Positions 2,892 to 49,784 of a stretch of DNA of 64,000 nt are shown here, piece by piece (positions within the stretch are counted from its first letter, which is position 1; every line of letters starts with the position of its first letter). This DNA comes from a virus (taxonomy: Duplodnaviria > Caudoviricetes). The translations under genes were made by a program, and so were the position numbers. The notes below the pieces were generated by a model. That model saw nothing but the letters and a program-made list of their open reading frames with translations. It was not told where the DNA came from and did not search any database. Where the stretch lies: the IMG/VR virus record IMGVR_UViG_3300044709_000184, positions 1-64,000 of that record; one strand, written 5' to 3'.

Positions 2892-4165
2892 CCATGCCCA
2901 CGCCCACGACTGTCCGAGGCCACGTCGGCCGTTTGATCCACCTGTACTGGCGGGAGGCCCTTGTCGTCCTCGCCCTGACCGTCACCGCCTGCGTGCCGCT
3001 GGCCATCCCGCAGTCCCGCCGGTACGCCCTGGGCTGGATGCGGTGCGGCCGTACCCGCCGCCTCATCCGGGCCGGCCTGGCCGCCACCAAGATGACCAAC
3101 ACGGCGGGCCAGGTGCCGCGGGTGCGGTCGGTGAAGGCCACCCCGGTCGGGGAGAGGGTGGAGCTGCGCACCCGGGCCGGCCATTCGGCTGAGCTGCTGT
3201 CGCTGCGTATGGAGGAGCTGCGGGCGGCGTTGAAGGCCCGCACGGTGCGCATCGACCGTGACCCCGAAGCCTCCAACAAGATCACGATGGAGGTGGTGCG
3301 GCGTGACCCGCTGGCCGCCGTCGCGATGGTGGCGTGGCTCGACCAGGACAAGCCGACCCTGTCGCTGTGGGACCCGATGCACCTGGGCACCACTGAGCTG
3401 GGCGTCGACCGTCGGCTCAGCCTGGTCGGCCGGGGCATCGTCGCCGGCGGCATCATGGACTCCGGCAAGTCGTCCCTGCTGAACCTGGTTGTAGCGACCG
3501 CGGCCAAGTCGCCTGCCGCGCTGTACCTGATCGACCCGCAGGGTGTGCAGTTCGGGCCGTGGCGGGCGCGGGCCACCATGTACGCCCAGAAGGACCCGGA
3601 CGAGGCTCTGGCGGTGTTGGAGGCCGTACAGGCCGAGATCGACGAGCGGCTGGCCGCGATGGAGGCCCTGCCGGGTGTGGTCCGCAAACTCACCCCCGCC
3701 GTGGCCGACCAGCTGGGCCTGCACCCGTTCGTGTTGGCGATCGACGAGCTGGCCTACCACACCGCCACCGTCGGGTCGGGCGCCCAGCGGGACCGGTTCG
3801 CGTCGACCGCCCGTGACGTGGTCTCACGCGGCCGGGCCGCCGGCCTCATCCCGGTCATGGCCACCCAGCGCCCCACCCAGGACGTCGTACCCCGGGCCCT
3901 CACCGACCTGTTCGGCATCCGGGTCGCGTTCAAAACCGCCAACGACGCCAACAGCGACATCCTCCTCGGCACCGGCCTGGCCGCCCGCGGCTACAACGCC
4001 GCCGACATCGACCTCGAATCCCGGGGCGTGGGGCTGCTGCTGGGCCCCAGCGGAATACCGGAACGCATCAAGGTCGCATGGGTGTCTGACGACGTCATCG
4101 ACGGTCTGGCCAGCACCACCGTCGCCTTCAAGCCCCGCCGCGCCAGCGTTGCCGCGGCGGCCTAA
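2888..4165 (+). CDS. Second FtsK/SpoIIIE-family ATPase (short TraB-like)
   Basis: One TM, Walker A GIMDSGKS, Walker B LAIDE, ATQRP; ends just after the ATPase domain. Confidence 0.85.
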   Translation: MTMPTPTTVRGHVGRLIHLYWREALVVLALTVTACVPLAIPQSRRYALGWMRCGRTRRLIRAGLAATKMTNTAGQVPRVRSVKATPVGERVELRTRAGHSAELLSLRMEELRAALKARTVRIDRDPEASNKITMEVVRRDPLAAVAMVAWLDQDKPTLSLWDPMHLGTTELGVDRRLSLVGRGIVAGGIMDSGKSSLLNLVVATAAKSPAALYLIDPQGVQFGPWRARATMYAQKDPDEALAVLEAVQAEIDERLAAMEALPGVVRKLTPAVADQLGLHPFVLAIDELAYHTATVGSGAQRDRFASTARDVVSRGRAAGLIPVMATQRPTQDVVPRALTDLFGIRVAFKTANDANSDILLGTGLAARGYNAADIDLESRGVGLLLGPSGIPERIKVAWVSDDVIDGLASTTVAFKPRRASVAAAA

Positions 4166-4192: not shown

Positions 4193-4408
4193 ATGACCGA
4201 CGGCCGGCCAGCCAGGGCGACCCGGGCCGTGCAGCTCGCGCTGGACGCGATCGCGTGGCAGGCGTCAGACGACCCGCACCCGCCGGCGTCGATACGGGGA
4301 CTGTCAACCGCCGACCAGGCCGCCCTGGCCAGGGCGGCGCACCGGGCGGTGGCGGCGGCTGACGCCCTCGCCGCCCGGTCGGTCGAAAGAGGAGCCGAAC
4401 AGGAATGA
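4193..4408 (+). CDS. Hypothetical protein
   Basis: AAAGGAG RBS. Confidence 0.65.
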   Translation: MTDGRPARATRAVQLALDAIAWQASDDPHPPASIRGLSTADQAALARAAHRAVAAADALAARSVERGAEQE

Positions 4409-4539
4409 GCAAACCGTCCAGGGCCCAACAGCGGGCCGAACTCGCCGACAACAACGACAACCAGGGCAGTACGGCACTTGACGACAAGTACCGGGCCGCC
4501 GAGCTGGCCCGCCGGGCCGGCACCCCCACCCGCCGGTAA
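4405..4539 (+). CDS. Hypothetical 44-aa protein
   Basis: ATGA overlap; not in ORF track. Confidence 0.45.
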   Translation: MSKPSRAQQRAELADNNDNQGSTALDDKYRAAELARRAGTPTRR

Positions 4540-4754
4540 CCGCCTACCTACCCAAGGCCGGGGCGCTGCCCGACCCTGCATCAGCCAGCGCCCCGGCACC
4601 CACCACCGAACTGGAGGGCACCCCCGATGTTGCACCGCCTCGTGGCCCGGCTGTACGAGCGGGTCACCCACAAGCCGTACTGGACCACGGTGCAGTGGCG
4701 GCCCGTCGCCGCCCAGCCGCCGGCCACCGCCGACGCAACGCAGACGGCCCGCCC

Positions 4755-8336: not shown

Positions 8337-8362
8337 CGAGCCGGTGCAGTGGCCGGAAACGC

Positions 8363-8414
8363 AAAAAGGGCCCCGGCCCGCCCCCGTGTCGGTCGGAGGC
8401 GGGCCGGAGCCCTT
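8363..8414 (-). terminator. Intrinsic terminator of the 14.3 to 8.4 kb operon
   Basis: About 20-bp GC stem followed by TTTTT on the minus strand. Confidence 0.75.
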
Positions 8415-8683
8415 GTGGGTGTGCGGTCGTGCGGGTGCGGTCCAGCGGAACGCACAGGGGCTCTCAGCGGGCCGTGTCAGCCGGCGGAGCCGTCGGGGTA
8501 CAGGTGCGGCTCACTGTCCAGATGTGCCCGCACCCGGGCCTCGACCATCTCATCGATCAGGTTGGCCAGGACGTCGACCACCATCTGGGGCCCGCGCCTC
8601 AGCGCCGGTGCCGTCGGCCGGGTCGAGGGCCTCAGTGAGGTACGTGACCAGCTCGGTGCGCCGCGCTACGTGGTGTTCGCCGC

Positions 8684-9914: not shown

Positions 9915-10108
9915 TGGGTGGGCGGGCGAGCCGTGATGCTCCTGCCTGGCACAGACAAACCTCGCTGTGCCGGGTCGGTTGGTCACGGATCGGCTGAGCT
10001 GCAAAGACAGGACTTTGCATGATCGACGACGTGAACGCTCGTCTCCTCCGTTCGGCCGAGGTGCGGGATAGCCGAACGGGGGAGGTGAGCGCGGGGCGCT
10101 ACTCAGTG
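9915..10108 (-). ncRNA. Candidate structured intergenic RNA (about 190 nt)
   Basis: Three hairpins plus enclosing CCGTGA/TCACGG and CTGAG/CTCAG pairings. Confidence 0.45.
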
Positions 10109-10110
10109 CC

Positions 10111-10904: not shown

Positions 10905-11019
10905 TGGTTGCTCCTTCGGGTCGGGTGTCTCCTACCGTAACAGGTACCGGCAGGAGACACAACCGTGTGGCCACCGCACCGCACCGGCCCATCACCCTGG
11001 GCCGGTGCAGCACGGCTAG

Positions 11020-11346: not shown

Positions 11347-11445
11347 GTCGGTTCTCCCATCCGACTGCCCAGATGCCCGTCTGGGTCGGTTCTGGCCTGA
11401 CGGCCACGGCTCCGGCTGGTACGGCGACCAGCCGGGCCGGAGCGG

Positions 11446-11931
11446 TCAGGCGGACTTGCGGGCGACGGGGTTGATGCTGAGGCCCATGACGGCCTCGAGG
11501 TGCGGGTTGGTCTCGCCGGCCATGTACCACGTCTGGAGCCGGTTGAGCCGCTCAGCGGTGACGGCCGGCTGGGCCGAGTCGGCGTACCAGGGGGCGATCG
11601 CGGCGGCGAGCTGGTGCGGCGCTACCACTACGACCCGGCCGGTGGCTTCCTCGACGATCCGGAGCCGGCCGCGGGCGGCCCGCACACGGAACCAGTCGAT
11701 GGCGATGTTGGCCAGCAGTGAGATCGCCCAGGCGCCGCCGCAGGCGTACAGCGTGAACCGGATGTTCTCGGCGGTGGCGCCGAGGAATGCGGCGGCCAGG
11801 GCGGCGCCCACTGACCAGGCCAGGAACATGCCGGCGGCCAGGCTGACCGCGGTGAACAGCCAGACCTTCATCCACCTTTCCGGTGTCCGGTAGCCGGCGG
11901 CCGAGGCGGTGGGCTTGGTGCAGGTGACCAC
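11446..11931 (-). CDS. Membrane protein (2-3 TM)
   Basis: AAGGAGG RBS just 3' of tRNA-like element 1. Confidence 0.7.
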   Translation of the reverse strand: MVTCTKPTASAAGYRTPERWMKVWLFTAVSLAAGMFLAWSVGAALAAAFLGATAENIRFTLYACGGAWAISLLANIAIDWFRVRAARGRLRIVEEATGRVVVVAPHQLAAAIAPWYADSAQPAVTAERLNRLQTWYMAGETNPHLEAVMGLSINPVARKSA

Positions 11932-11967
11932 GATGGGGCCTCCTTCGGTTGGGGGGGTTCGGGGTCG

Positions 11968-12047
11968 CCTCCCTGCCAGGGCTCGAACCTGGACCTGCCG
12001 GGGCCCGTCGGCTGACCGGTCGCGCTACCACGTTGCGCTACAGGGAA
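11968..12047 (-). ncRNA. tRNA-like element 1 with aberrant 14-nt anticodon loop
   Basis: TTCCCTG-TA-GCGC-AACGTGGTA-GCGC-G-ACCGG-TCAGCCGACGGGCC-CCGGC-AGGT-CCAGG-TTCGAGC-CCTGG-CAGGGAG-G; acceptor, D and T arms intact; no encoded CCA. Confidence 0.8.
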
Positions 12048-12977: not shown

Positions 12978-13001
12978 AGTGGACCTCCTTCCGTTGGGTC
13001 G

Positions 13002-13073
13002 TCTCCCTGCCCGGGGTCGAACCGGGACCTGCCGACCAGGGGGCCGGCTGCGCTGCCGTTGCGCTACAGGAAG
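13002..13073 (-). ncRNA. tRNA-like element 2 with aberrant anticodon arm
   Basis: CTTCCTG-TA-GCGC-AACGGCA-GCGC-A-GCCGG-CCCCCTGG-TCGGC-AGGT-CCCGG-TTCGACC-CCGGG-CAGGGAG-A; 8-nt loop with no U33, can zip to a 7-bp stem with CCCT loop. Confidence 0.82.
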
Positions 13074-13158
13074 GTGGAGGGGCGGGAACCCCGCTAGAGT
13101 TCCCGCCCCTCGTTCACCGCACCGGCTAGCGGGACCGGTCGGTCCGACTAGCCGAGGC

Positions 13159-13729: not shown

Positions 13730-14308
13730 GGGTCGAAGTTTGGGTGACCGTTTGGCCGCCCCCGCGGCGGCCCCCCGGTCTCGGGGGTTTGGCCCGGGCG
13801 CTGGCGGAGCTTTCGCTCGACGCCGGCTGCCTCACGGGTTCGGGAGTTGTGGTCCTGCCACTTCAGAGGGGCTGAGGGGGGCGGGCCTGCCGTGCCGGCC
13901 GCTGTCTGGGCGAGGGCACCCGATCGCCGCTTGACCACGTTCGGACTTACACCGCCTCGTGGCGGCCGAAGCCGCTCCTATGTCTGCCTAGCTCTTGGCG
14001 CGCTGCCAGCCGTTGGCTGGTCGTTGGCTTCCCTCATCGCCTCAGCCCCTTTGGAGGGGCAGGGGGTTGATCTTTGCGCTCTGTCCGTTCCGCTCGATCT
14101 TCACTTCGCGTTCGGTGGTCCTCGGTCGGCTAGCTCGTCCGGTGGGTCTAGGTTGCAGGCCTTGCAACCGATCTGCGGGCGGGCTCGGGCAGGTTTCCCG
14201 GTGGCCTCTCGTCTCGTACCTAGCGGCTTGGTGCTCGTCGCGGGTGCGGGTGGGGGTCTTGCTTCCCCGGCGCCTCTGTGGAGTTTTCAATCTTCGATTT
14301 CCCCCGTT
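13730..14308 (-). ncRNA. Candidate large structured RNA or 5' leader (about 580-590 nt)
   Basis: No credible ORF; GAAA and cUUCGg tetraloop hairpins on the minus strand; 24-nt long-range helix 13854-13877/14040-14063; directly after a promoter. Confidence 0.6.
14276..14290 (-). promoter_or_regulatory. boxA-like antitermination signal
   Basis: TTGAAAACTCCACAG resembles actinobacterial rrn leader boxA (TTTGAGAACTCAA.AG). Confidence 0.5.
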
Positions 14309-14343
14309 ACGTAAAGTGTAACACATGTCGGGTAGTGATACGA
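14304..14343 (-). promoter_or_regulatory. Promoter (TCGTAT-N17-TACACT) with TTAC-N7-GTAA palindrome
   Basis: 29/38 identical to 21678-21715. Confidence 0.7.
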
Positions 14344-14375: not shown

Positions 14376-14391
14376 TGTGATCCTGGTCACA
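14376..14391. promoter_or_regulatory. CRP/GlxR-type binding site
   Basis: Perfect TGTGA-N6-TCACA in the divergent intergenic region. Confidence 0.6.
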
Positions 14392-14524: not shown

Positions 14525-15100
14525 ATGTACCCGACCGTAACCCCAACCCCCCGCCGTAGCCGTGTTCCGCTGGTCCTGGGCATCATCGGCGGCGCCCTGT
14601 TCCTGCTGTGCGGCGGCCTGGTCCTCATCGTCGCCCTGGCCGCGAAGAGCGTCCCCAGCACCGCGACCAGCGCCGGCGGCAACGGCGCGGCCGGCCCCGC
14701 CGTGGCAGGTCTGGGCCAGCCGGCCCGTGACGGCAAGTTCGAGTTCACCGTGACAAAGGTCCAATGTGGTGTGCCCCAGGTCGGCACCGACCTGTTCAGC
14801 CGCAAGGCCCAGGGCCAGTACTGCCTCGTGTCCGTCACGGTCGCCAACATCGGCGGCGAGCCCCGCACCCTGGCCGCCGCCAACCAGCACGCCTACAACG
14901 CCGCCGGCGCAACCTACGACGCCGACTCGGCCGCCTCGATCTACCTCAACGACGCCGGGCGGGTCCTGTACGAGCCGATCAATCCCGGCAACCGGGTCAA
15001 CGGCACCCTGGTCTTCGACATCCCGAAAGACGGCAAGCTGGTCCGGCTCGAGCTGCACGACTCGCCGCTGTCGGGCGGAGTCGCGGTCACCCTGGGCTAG
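14525..15100 (+). CDS. DUF4352-type membrane-anchored protein (Mpr-like; possible superinfection exclusion)
   Basis: TM; RDGKFEFTV, KAQGQY, INPGN, LVFDIP, LELHDS motifs. Confidence 0.8.
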   Translation: MYPTVTPTPRRSRVPLVLGIIGGALFLLCGGLVLIVALAAKSVPSTATSAGGNGAAGPAVAGLGQPARDGKFEFTVTKVQCGVPQVGTDLFSRKAQGQYCLVSVTVANIGGEPRTLAAANQHAYNAAGATYDADSAASIYLNDAGRVLYEPINPGNRVNGTLVFDIPKDGKLVRLELHDSPLSGGVAVTLG

Positions 15101-16133: not shown

Positions 16134-16427
16134 TCAGACCGGGGTGCGGTCCCGGTAGGGCGGGGGCAGCCCGTTGCGGGCATCATCGGTCAGCGGCGCT
16201 GCCTTGACCGGGAACGCCCCGGGCACGATCTGGCCGTAGGCGAGCCACAGTTGGGCGGCCAGGGCGTAGTCGTCCGGGTCGGTGTGCTGCCGGTCCCAGC
16301 TCGTCGCCGCCCACAGGTACCGGGCGACCGGGTCGACGTCGTCCGGGTTGATCGCGTCGATGACCTCCTGGGTGGCCAGGCGCCGCACCTGCGGCTGCCC
16401 CAGCCACCACCGCAACAGCCTGATCAT
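16134..16427 (-). CDS. Hypothetical protein
   Basis: GGAGG RBS, ATGA overlap. Confidence 0.65.
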   Translation of the reverse strand: MIRLLRWWLGQPQVRRLATQEVIDAINPDDVDPVARYLWAATSWDRQHTDPDDYALAAQLWLAYGQIVPGAFPVKAAPLTDDARNGLPPPYRDRTPV

Positions 16428-17389
16428 GATGCCTCCTCCAGGGCCCGCGCCGCGGTCACCCTGATCGATCCGCTCTTTGTCCACGTTAGACGCCATGACC
16501 CGTAGATGCCGGCCGGTGACCCGGCCAGCACCGACCGCCAGAAGTCCTGTTCGGACGCAGCGTCAGACACGGTGCGGGCCGCGGCCCCGTACGCGCCCAG
16601 GGCCGCCTCGATCGCCGCGTCGGTCCGTACGATCGACGCCTGCGCACCGACCACGCCCGACTTGGCACCGGGCCAGCACCGTGACAGGAACGGGCACTCA
16701 TCGCAGCCCTTCGACTTGCCCGGCCCCTTCATGCGCCACCGCCGACCGCCCGGCATCGCCGCGGTGAGACGGGGGGCGGTGTCCGGGTCGGCGGCGGCGT
16801 CGATGATGTCCCGGACCCGGTTGATGACGGCCAGCAACCCGGCCGGGGTGATCTCCCGCACGAAGATTTCTTCGGCGCCGGTGCCGCGGTCGACGTAGAT
16901 CAGCACCGCCCAGCGGATGAGCCTCCCGGTGCGTTGCGTCTCGCCCAGGGCGTAGGCGAAGACCTGCACCCAGTGGTCGCCGTACGGGCCGTAGCGGCGC
17001 ACCACGTCCAGCCCGTCGACGGTCTTCACGTCGACGATCTCGCCCCCGTCGGCCGACTCGACCACGGCTAGGTCGGTTTGGCCGGTGATGGCCAGCCCGG
17101 CGGCGTGGGCGATGACGTCGGTTTCGTGCTTCCCGCCGACCTGGTCGGCGAGGCGGGGCAGAAACCCGAGGTGGAACCAGGTGCCCAGGTTCGCGGCCCG
17201 AGCCTCGGCGGGTGGGGGAGTGTCGCTGACCGGGGTACCGGCCAGGGCGTAGGCGGCCTGCCGGGTGCAGCCCCCGAGCTTGGACACGGACAGCCGATGC
17301 GGGGGGCGGGCCCGGGATGAGGTCTCAGCAACGTGGGCAGCGGCGACCGCGGCCTGGTACTTGTCCCGCACCGTCGCCGACGTGGTCAC
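16424..17389 (-). CDS. PD-(D/E)XK (Cas4/RecB-like) exonuclease
   Basis: GQTD, VDVKT, QVFAY; N-terminal Cys plus CxxC...C. Confidence 0.8.
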   Translation of the reverse strand: MTTSATVRDKYQAAVAAAHVAETSSRARPPHRLSVSKLGGCTRQAAYALAGTPVSDTPPPAEARAANLGTWFHLGFLPRLADQVGGKHETDVIAHAAGLAITGQTDLAVVESADGGEIVDVKTVDGLDVVRRYGPYGDHWVQVFAYALGETQRTGRLIRWAVLIYVDRGTGAEEIFVREITPAGLLAVINRVRDIIDAAADPDTAPRLTAAMPGGRRWRMKGPGKSKGCDECPFLSRCWPGAKSGVVGAQASIVRTDAAIEAALGAYGAAARTVSDAASEQDFWRSVLAGSPAGIYGSWRLTWTKSGSIRVTAARALEEAS

Positions 17390-48120: not shown

Positions 48121-48311
48121 CACAGCCACCTGCACAGCAGGCTGCCCACGAACAGCCCCACCAGCAGGGCCAGGGCCGCGTAGCTGTGCGGGTTGGCCCG
48201 CGGCCACCAGTAGCTGCGCCGGGGCTGGCACACCGTCCGGTGGTCGGGTGCGGTCTGTTCGGTCAGGGCGGTGCCGCACAAAATGCAGCTGATCAGTGTT
48301 CGGCCGGTCAT
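48120..48311 (-). CDS. Small Zn-binding TM protein
   Basis: CxxC...H..C plus TM. Confidence 0.55.
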   Translation of the reverse strand: MTGRTLISCILCGTALTEQTAPDHRTVCQPRRSYWWPRANPHSYAALALLVGLFVGSLLCRWL

Positions 48312-49303
48312 GAGGCTTCTCCTTCGGCTTCGATGCGGGCGGTGTGCCACCGCTTCTCCAGCTGCCATGAGGGGCTGCGTTCGGGCGAGTTGGGTGACCG
48401 GTCGTACATGTCGGTCGTGACGATCGAGGCGTGCCCGGCGGCGCGGCGCACATCACCCATGGGCATACCGCCGTCGAGGGCCGTCGTGATGTGGGTGGCC
48501 CGGGTCGAGTGGGGGGTGAGCTGGTCGATGAGCCGCTCCGGCAGACCCGCCTCGGCGGCTAGGCGGCGCAGCAGCAGCCGCACCGCGGTCCGGTGGATGC
48601 GCCGGCCGGTCCTGGTGGCGACCAGCGGCCGGTCCCCGGCGGCGACCTGACCTGGCAGGGCCGGCAGCCGGTCCAGGTCGGTTCGGTCGGCCAGGTAGGC
48701 CTCAATCCGGGCCAGGGTGCCGGGGGCGATGGTGACCAGCCGGGTCCGGCCGCCCTTGCCCCGCACGTACAGCACCGTCATGCCCCGGTCCAGGCCAATG
48801 TCGCCGACGTTCGCGGCGACCAGCTCCCCGACCCGGATGCCGGTGGTCAACAGCAGCCACACGATCGCCGCGGCCCGGGGTGTGTCGGCCAGGGCCGCGG
48901 CGAGGAGCTTCTCCACCTGCCCGTCCGACAGGGCCGGGGCCCGCCTCGGTGCCGGTTTGGGCCGCTCGGCCCGGTCGAGCAGGGCCGGGTTGCGGTCGGT
49001 GGCCTCCTCCCGGATGAGCCACCCGTACCACGACGACACCGCCGCCAGCCGCCGCGCCCGGGTCGACCCGGACTCGTGGGTCAGCGATCCCAGCCACAAC
49101 GACACGTGCCGGTGCCGGGCATCGGTCGGGTAGACCCCGTTGGTCCGGCACCACTTCAACCACGACGCGAGGTCACGCCGGTAGGCGTCCTTGGTGTGCT
49201 CGGAGAGCCGGGCGACCAGCCAGTCGTTGGTCAGCTCGTTAAGCCGTTCGTTGCTGGTCGGATCACCGGCCGGGACGAGGTCGTTACCTGCCACGGCGGC
49301 CAT
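48308..49303 (-). CDS. Tyrosine recombinase (XerC/D-like)
   Basis: SAM-like N-domain; GIRVGE, GKGG, HSTR, GH, DMYD. Confidence 0.92.
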   Translation of the reverse strand: MAAVAGNDLVPAGDPTSNERLNELTNDWLVARLSEHTKDAYRRDLASWLKWCRTNGVYPTDARHRHVSLWLGSLTHESGSTRARRLAAVSSWYGWLIREEATDRNPALLDRAERPKPAPRRAPALSDGQVEKLLAAALADTPRAAAIVWLLLTTGIRVGELVAANVGDIGLDRGMTVLYVRGKGGRTRLVTIAPGTLARIEAYLADRTDLDRLPALPGQVAAGDRPLVATRTGRRIHRTAVRLLLRRLAAEAGLPERLIDQLTPHSTRATHITTALDGGMPMGDVRRAAGHASIVTTDMYDRSPNSPERSPSWQLEKRWHTARIEAEGEAS

Positions 49304-49784
49304 CCCGCTTGCCCACGTTGCCGAGCAGGTCATCCACGATTCTGGCTGCGCGGCGCAGCCCACCCGGGTAGGTCACGTGTTGGCGGGCCGGAGCGGCTCT
49401 CTCCCCCCTGCTGGCTTCGGCCATGATCGCCTTGTGTGCGCCCGCCAGAGCGACCCGCATTGACTGGTCGACCAGTTCGTCCCGGGCGTCCAGCACAGCC
49501 GCTGCGCTCTCACCAGCATCGGCGGCGAGACAGTTGCGGTGCCACAACTGCTCAACCAGATGGGTGTATGGGGCGACGGCGCAGTCGCACGTGTCGAACA
49601 CGTACGCCAGGTCGATGATGCCGACCCGCAACAGGTCGGCACCGCAGCGCGGGCAGGCGCTGAGCCGCTGGTCTGGGTGGTCACGACGCGAGTGCAACTC
49701 CAACGTTTGCCCGGTCGGCTCAGCCATGGCCACCAACTCCCGGCAGCAGTGCCGGCATGTTGCCGTTGCCGTAGGCCTGCTCAA
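49284..49784 (-). CDS. Zn-ribbon hypothetical protein
   Basis: Start uncertain (possibly 49727). Confidence 0.55.
   Translation of the reverse strand: MSRPTATATCRHCCRELVAMAEPTGQTLELHSRRDHPDQRLSACPRCGADLLRVGIIDLAYVFDTCDCAVAPYTHLVEQLWHRNCLAADAGESAAAVLDARDELVDQSMRVALAGAHKAIMAEASRGERAAPARQHVTYPGGLRRAARIVDDLLGNVGKRDGRRGR

Follow-up and report, generated by a model that had tools for sequence, protein, structure and literature searches.

Organization of the leader region

The window analysed here comprises 64,000 nucleotides and is the first part of an IMG/VR virus record of 101,924 bp, which is 94% complete and has a GC content of approximately 71%. The phage genome encodes a major head protein and two tyrosine recombinases. 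Both recombinase genes lie in one phage, at window positions 48308-49363 and genome positions 93217-94386; the window also carries an FtsK-like gene (538-2673) and a Cas4-like nuclease gene (16424-17389). On the minus strand, the region 13730-14308 lies directly ahead of a gene for a DUF2637-like membrane protein. We refer to this region as the leader and to that gene as the first gene. From the upstream to the downstream end, the features are as follows:

14376-14391: CRP-type palindrome without mismatches, TGTGA-N6-TCACA; its centre lies about 75 nt ahead of the predicted start
14315-14323, minus strand: extended -10 promoter-like element (TG-n-TACACT), read from the sequence, with a predicted start at about 14308
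14276-14290, minus strand: boxA of the actinobacterial rRNA/tRNA-array type, TTGAAAACTCCACAG, assigned by placement in host genomes
14068-14275, minus strand: block A, a U-poor, purine-rich and weakly structured 5' module that includes the hairpin at 14151-14169
13853-14064, minus strand: domain B1, about 210 nt, closed by a 24-bp helix (14040-14063 with 13854-13877); a candidate RNase III-excised small RNA
14006-14020, minus strand: 6-bp hairpin in B1, with one C-G to U-G change and 100% of cells paired
13962-13975, minus strand: UUCG hairpin in B1, belonging to one of two alternative interior folds
13942-13954, minus strand: T-loop hairpin inside B1, with a stem of 3-4 bp and a 7-nt loop
13797-13831, minus strand: B2 bulged hairpin with a CG-UY-GAGC...GCUC-CG core, a putative cis element tied to the first gene
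13746-13780, minus strand: B2 two-stem hairpin with a G-rich loop, also present in L008, L062 and L084
13719-13732, minus strand: short hairpin over the first-gene Shine-Dalgarno sequence; a predicted fold, invariant in L008, L011, L062 and L084
13159-13716, minus strand: first gene, encoding a DUF2637-like membrane protein of 185 aa whose C-terminal tail is basic; 34 homologues
13001-13073, minus strand: anticodon-less tRNA mimic (ARAGORN), directly before a ribosome-binding site in the same operon
11967-12047, minus strand: second anticodon-less tRNA mimic, before a ribosome-binding site

The stretch of about 590 nt is non-coding, as the first-pass annotation had proposed. Its GC content is 0.68, 0.68 and 0.69 by frame, compared to 0.65, 0.47 and 0.91 by codon position in the next gene, and several 1-nt indels separate the homologues. 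A protein-coding gene within the leader was rejected, as neither codon-position GC bias nor a conserved frame is present. All five helices that the annotation had named on the minus strand of 13730-14308 were recovered at their exact positions: a hairpin with a GAAA loop (13807-13818), a UUCG hairpin (13962-13975), two further hairpins (14006-14020 and 14151-14169), and a long-range helix pairing 13854-13877 with 14040-14063, in which 21 of 24 positions are complementary (three mismatches) and 162 nt lie between the arms. The two tetraloops vary among relatives, UUCG being replaced by CCCG in L062 and the GAAA loop differing in L008, L011, L084 and L158.

As a whole, the region folds moderately better than shuffled sequences (z -2.05). 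By part, z amounts to -2.5 for B1, -0.43 for block A and -1.35 for B2. The leader is the most U-poor 560-nt segment of the genome, with 7.3% U versus 14%; the runner-up is a region of small genes near 4200 with 7.9% U. Rfam returned no match over the region at the gathering threshold or at E<=10, in line with the first-pass annotation, which could assign no known family, and hence none to a known riboswitch or ribozyme. By-eye comparison with RNase P, the hairpin and HDV ribozymes, group I and II intron cores and cobalamin riboswitch motifs failed on the core sequences, and these candidates were rejected. The description as a structured non-coding leader outside known families thus stands, with covariation in B1 and a promoter-like site followed by boxA, whereas its description as one large ornate RNA does not.

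Related leaders were reached via the flanking proteins of the locus. The leader DNA was absent from the 401 Micromonosporaceae genomes searched; blastn of the leader against 50,697 cultured phages gave chance or boxA-level matches only, and the first protein had no tblastn match among the same phages. DNA-pattern scans of IMG/VR for B1 and for B2 likewise returned only the L062 phage or chance matches. The host probably lies in or near the Micromonosporaceae, since the DUF2637-like family of the first gene occurs in 22 of 301 genomes of this group. In two related phages, DpdA (7-deazaguanine DNA modification) is fused to DUF6884 (L062 1714-2991 and L063 795-2075).

Predicted promoter region and boxA

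The extended -10 element has a similar counterpart in L063; a strict sigma70 scan found nothing. The perfect CRP-type palindrome occurs as a single copy in the genome, and L025 also carries a CRP-type site upstream of its boxA. Control by cAMP/CRP through the palindrome at 14376-14391 is possible.

The boxA 15-mer sits 18 nt after the predicted (unmapped) start, ahead of the long untranslated RNA, and most related phage leaders begin with it at the same position. BoxA elements are known from rRNA leaders (PMC10218544; PMC5725501) and from CRISPR leaders (bioRxiv 10.64898/2026.07.09.737519). We read the leader 15-mer as boxA because its copies in Micromonosporaceae precede 16S rRNA, tRNA arrays and a CRISPR array; its identity is taken from this placement in host genomes, and binding of Nus factors is predicted only. 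In Micromonosporaceae genomes, 16S rRNA is preceded at a distance of 143 nt by a close variant, and the phage 15-mer is identical to the commonest host motif at this position in 13 of 15 bases. The phage-type variant gave 201 matches in 135 of 301 Micromonosporaceae genomes, compared to one match for the reversed control. The exact 15-mer is found at the head of tRNA arrays in L108-L110, a one-base variant sits in a Micromonosporaceae CRISPR array, and, among the loci read, a variant also heads operons of integrative elements. A boxA-complementary trailer was not found in the phage genome. A literature search, mostly of open-access journals, found no paper on boxA in actinobacteriophages.

Several further loci carry boxA-type sequences. 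In many Micromonosporaceae genomes, large tRNA arrays are headed by the boxA variant, often after the first tRNA; examples are L094, L107-L110, L117, L120-L125 and L127-L130. In L105, L106, L111-L115 and L126 a variant, often preceded by a palindrome, follows directly on a long ORF and precedes small excisionase-like genes that belong to integrative elements. L116 and L118 are two host loci (~1515-1800) in which boxA is followed by about 300 nt of similar non-coding sequence, which has no Rfam match and is a candidate new RNA. Furthermore, Mycobacterium phage Bryler and six related records (L165 1501-1525) contain a boxA-like 15-mer that follows a consensus-like promoter and precedes the start of gene 91; occurring in cultured mycobacteriophages, this element would permit a bench test.

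The leader is a mosaic of exchangeable modules

Comparison of the relatives shows that the 5' and 3' halves of the leader assort independently. Positions 14307-14072 are 95% identical to L082, which lacks block B and continues after block A with a different hairpin and then a 111-aa ORF. Block B (14066-13717) is common to L008/L009 and L062 at 85-92% identity, where it follows other 5' blocks. L010/L011 and L084 share just the final 120-135 nt of the leader, that is, B2 without B1. L064 has the same flanking DUF4352 gene and wholly different leader modules. In phages encoding the 95%-identical protein P0001, the corresponding gap is 164 nt shorter. An all-against-all comparison of about 30 leaders revealed a network of common modules, nearly all of them U-poor. 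Among the relatives found, none keeps the whole 590 nt, and no conserved pairing between block A and block B was detected. The leader is thus a mosaic of exchangeable modules.

The flanking DUF4352 protein gene (window 14525-15100, plus strand) is divergent from the leader. It is present in the L064, L082 and P0001 contigs and absent in L008 and L062, and we regard it as a moron. A GNRA-capped hairpin belongs to a module of about 90-100 nt that six leaders (L015, L023, L025, L027, L064 and L137) share just after boxA; the sequences of these leaders are enough for a covariance model. L064 further contains, at the same leader position (~3410-3580, minus strand), a tRNA-like unit of acceptor stem and T arm with a large inserted helical domain, a layout resembling that of tmRNA or Y RNA.

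Domain B1 and its closing helix

Within the 101,924-bp genome, the repeat that frames B1 is the only long-range one of its kind, defined by 24-nt arms that lie 50-400 nt apart and form at least 21 Watson-Crick pairs; five dinucleotide-resampled genomes contained none. RNase III substrates are helices of at least two turns, and the 24-bp helix has the length of about two turns or more that this enzyme needs.

The domain was found in three lineages at 83-91% identity. Pairing is retained in 97.6-98.7% of cells, with two pairs changed on both sides and 5-7 wobble-type changes, in an alignment of four related rows with shuffle counts of 7-21 in 500. In the closing helix, one pair changes from G-C to A-U, two wobble changes occur, and the three mismatches are kept in register. 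In the stem of the T-loop hairpin, the middle pair flips from G-C to C-G in L008/L009, and a flanking position is A-U in L062. Covariation across these four related rows from three lineages supports the closing helix and the T-loop, as support and not as proof.

For the interior of B1, two folds are candidates. A three-way junction containing the UUCG hairpin has 97.6% of cells paired; in a rod-like alternative, bases 13962-13975 pair with ~13911-13922 and 98.7% of cells are paired. The CCCG of L062, which amounts to two U-G to C-G changes in the rod, tips the balance slightly toward that fold. Relative to L008, conservation amounts to 0.83 in B1 and 0.91 in B2, compared to 0.78 at four-fold sites of the next gene. 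The high identity of B1 to L062 may derive from recent recombination instead of selection.

A covariance model of B1 found nothing further in 536 kb of related loci, and in 150 Micromonosporaceae genomes it gave two weak matches only, at least one of them inside a coding region. No antisense target was found; 14-mer matches elsewhere in the genome look like chance. The Pleft RNA of phage L5 (L166) shows a 16/17 antisense match to a conserved B1 loop at window positions ~13990-14006 (E 0.05), which is probably chance.

Helix-framed domains in related leaders

Comparable architectures were observed elsewhere. In L084, the B1 slot holds an unrelated 215-nt domain (25-238) with a closing helix of about 29 bp and a z of -3.35; this domain also contains a T-loop hairpin and has no Rfam match. 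Just before B1, L008 carries an extra domain (4450-4643) with a perfect closing helix of 27 bp; the leader of L144 contains a domain whose closing helix measures about 26-28 bp. These domains measure 165-220 nt each, with closing helices of 26-29 bp. The B1 model recognises none of the three, and we therefore treat them as analogues, with homology not shown.

B2, the first gene and the downstream operon

The B2 bulged hairpin, named for its 2-nt bulge, gave 16 matches in the loci and the genome searched, one per locus, and more in a further search. It always lies shortly upstream of a DUF2637-like gene and is present as a single copy in the 102-kb genome; for this reason, we mark it as a cis element of that gene. 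The two-stem hairpin of B2 retains both stems in L010/L011, where the internal loop alone is altered. One of the 34 homologues of the first gene carries PF10935, and the Atlas matches are DUF2637.

The operon downstream contains two tRNA mimics, 0.65 and 1.7 kb away, which are the "tRNA-like neighbours" of the first-pass annotation. They do not form a tRNA island, as both sit in gene spacers and lack an anticodon. Each mimic has full acceptor, D and T arms, with a variable hairpin in place of the anticodon arm. Compensatory changes occur across eight copies, and the acceptor and T stems covary. Such mimics are also present in L009, L011, L022, L062, L064, L083 and L084. A literature search, mostly of open-access journals, found no paper on phage tRNA-mimic decoys or covarying actinophage motifs. 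Very stable long hairpins lie in nearly every spacer of the leftward operon (10905-11019, 11347-11460, 10005-10110, 8337-8450 and 13075-13155), and the one at 11384-11450 recurs in L082 ahead of a different gene.

Proposed mechanism

We propose, at a probability of roughly 0.5, that the locus encodes a boxA-antiterminated early leader in which the long helix serves as an RNase III-type stem releasing an exchangeable small RNA. The locus would then be the 5' untranslated leader of a leftward early operon in a soil actinophage, arranged like a stable-RNA operon. Host RNA polymerase would start near 14308, presumably early in infection. BoxA is an element that recruits NusB/NusE and shields untranslated RNA from Rho. 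The phage element may recruit these host factors and so let the polymerase escape Rho termination along the roughly 570 nt of untranslated RNA.

The 24-bp helix, which is backed by covariation, would fold B1 as a self-contained unit and most likely acts as an RNase III-type processing stem. Cleavage is expected to yield a small RNA of about 165-190 nt with the T-loop and to leave the first mRNA with a new, hairpin-protected 5' end. B2, whose conservation is observed, may act in cis on the stability or translation of the DUF2637-like gene. Units shaped like tRNA are substrates of RNase P and RNase Z, and the downstream tRNA mimics could serve as punctuation marks for these enzymes.

The weakest step is the job of the freed RNA. 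On the analogy with the toxic L5/D29 Pleft RNAs, it might be abundant early on and act as a decoy, titrating away an RNA-binding protein or a defence protein of the host, a proposal that we regard as doubtful. Our broader reading is doubtful as well. It postulates that an exchangeable slot for non-coding cargo, or RNA morons, heads a boxA-protected early transcript resembling an rRNA operon, with the helix-framed RNAs and the tRNA mimics acting as trans decoys. Unrelated RNAs of 165-220 nt, each with its own RNase III stem, would then be swapped like accessory genes for host takeover or counter-defence. If helix-framed domains do act in trans, phages carry accessory RNAs in the way they carry accessory genes.

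Alternative explanations

The strongest competitor is a purely cis-acting leader of the lambda pL nutL-stem-N type, in which boxA and the folded modules would adjust antitermination, the stability of the mRNA and the translation of the first genes; the helix may also be cut here, yet the released piece would have no function of its own. We hold this to be possible, though the less probable account. It agrees with the position of boxA directly after the start, the ties of B2 and of the Shine-Dalgarno-covering hairpin to the first gene, the basic tail of the first protein and the lambda precedent (PMC5725501). However, a processing stem alone needs no conserved 160-nt interior with a covarying T-loop hairpin, and close relatives that share the first gene lack B1 or have it replaced, which suits cargo better than core machinery.

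B1 could also be a ligand-sensing, riboswitch-like switch that acts on the first gene via two alternative folds. T-loop hairpins of the kind seen in B1 occur in cobalamin and FMN riboswitches, the two mutually exclusive interior folds have similar support, and a hairpin covers the Shine-Dalgarno sequence downstream. We nevertheless consider this reading improbable: Rfam gave no riboswitch match, the downstream gene is not metabolic, and B1 is sealed by its 24-bp helix, with no free strand toward an expression platform 120 nt away.

There is similarly little chance that the sequence is non-functional or acts at the DNA level, as a decayed gene, a set of recombination scars or inverted repeats serving as DNA sites. 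The modest folding z-scores and the few homologues leave room for such a view, and recombination can yield mosaicism. Yet the U-G wobble-type changes fit a minus-strand RNA, boxA is strand-specific, U depletion is extreme, no coding signature is present, and the modules recur across many phages.

A GOLLD/ROOL-class RNA had been suggested from the size and the tRNA-like neighbours, and we now judge a single continuous 590-nt RNA of this type, folding and oligomerising as a unit, very improbable. Its phage location, its neighbours and the whole-region z of -2.05 speak for this class, as does its size near that of ROOL, which is about 580 nt. However, no covariance-model match was obtained from Rfam at E<=10, block A folds no better than shuffled sequences and shows no conserved pairing with block B, and the halves assort independently. 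Conservation does not extend to the 590 nt as a whole, which speaks against the GOLLD/ROOL class, and the mosaicism largely refutes it.

Least probable of all is a retron ncRNA or a Y-RNA-like partner of a phage protein: B1 has a suitable size, and its closing inverted repeat resembles a retron a1/a2 stem or a Y RNA stem, but the 94%-complete genome encodes neither a reverse transcriptase nor a TROVE/Ro60 protein, and Rfam gave no match.

Comparison with known systems

The boxA-antiterminated leader that we favour bears on abundant early non-coding RNAs of actinophages, which are known from L5/D29 (Pleft) and Rhodococcus phage WC1 and are toxic in one case. The present locus offers a testable layout: it combines an actinobacterial boxA with processing-type stems and with modules that differ among close relatives, and each part can thus be deleted or swapped. 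It also adds RNA motifs missing from Rfam, namely B1, the B2 bulged hairpin, other leader modules and the anticodon-less tRNA mimics. In Micromonosporaceae, moreover, a single 15-mer is common to rRNA leaders, tRNA arrays, a CRISPR leader and the operons of mobile elements and thereby helps to locate non-coding transcripts.

In its working, the leader is closest to L5/D29 Pleft, an ORF-free early leader of about 500 nt from the main early actinophage promoter. In L5, this 500-nt non-coding early transcript is processed to species of 100-400 nt and is toxic to the host (PMC5712189), and Rhodococcus phage WC1 produces similar abundant RNAs (PMC10986025). Our own reading of the L5 sequence finds a T-loop hairpin as in B1 and, at the end, a hairpin resembling a tRNA T arm. 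In contrast to the leader described here, L5 Pleft is not U-poor (19%) and contains no boxA-like motif that we could find, and the two share no sequence homology. In addition, L5 transcripts mostly (about 90%) end with the leader, whereas boxA here points to read-through.

RNase III sites are a feature of both the T7 early region and the lambda pL leader. In these systems, as here, a host promoter is followed by boxA, a structured untranslated spacer and the first early gene: the T7 early region has boxA behind the host early promoters A1-A3 (PMC3709561), and lambda nutL precedes N by about 200 nt, the spacer between them being structured (PMC5725501). The present leader differs in its actinobacterial boxA, in having no boxB/N pair shown, in its greater length, in its exchangeable modules, and in a helix that encloses a conserved 160-nt domain. 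As judged by sequence comparison, it is not homologous to the T7, lambda pL, L5/D29 Pleft or WC1 counterparts.

Leaders of actinobacterial rRNA operons and tRNA arrays (CL2/boxA; PMC10218544) resemble it in that the same 15-mer heads a long non-coding transcript with long processing-type stems and tRNA-shaped units downstream. Here, however, the cargo is neither rRNA nor true tRNA, a boxA-complementary trailer is lacking, and protein genes are interleaved. GOLLD and ROOL (PMC12286853) are likewise phage-encoded, large and located near tRNA-like elements; the leader differs from them in having no covariance-model match, no conservation as a unit and no pseudoknot-rich core shown. The test of the actinobacterial boxA, the exchange of modules and the helix-framed slot are new in the present system.
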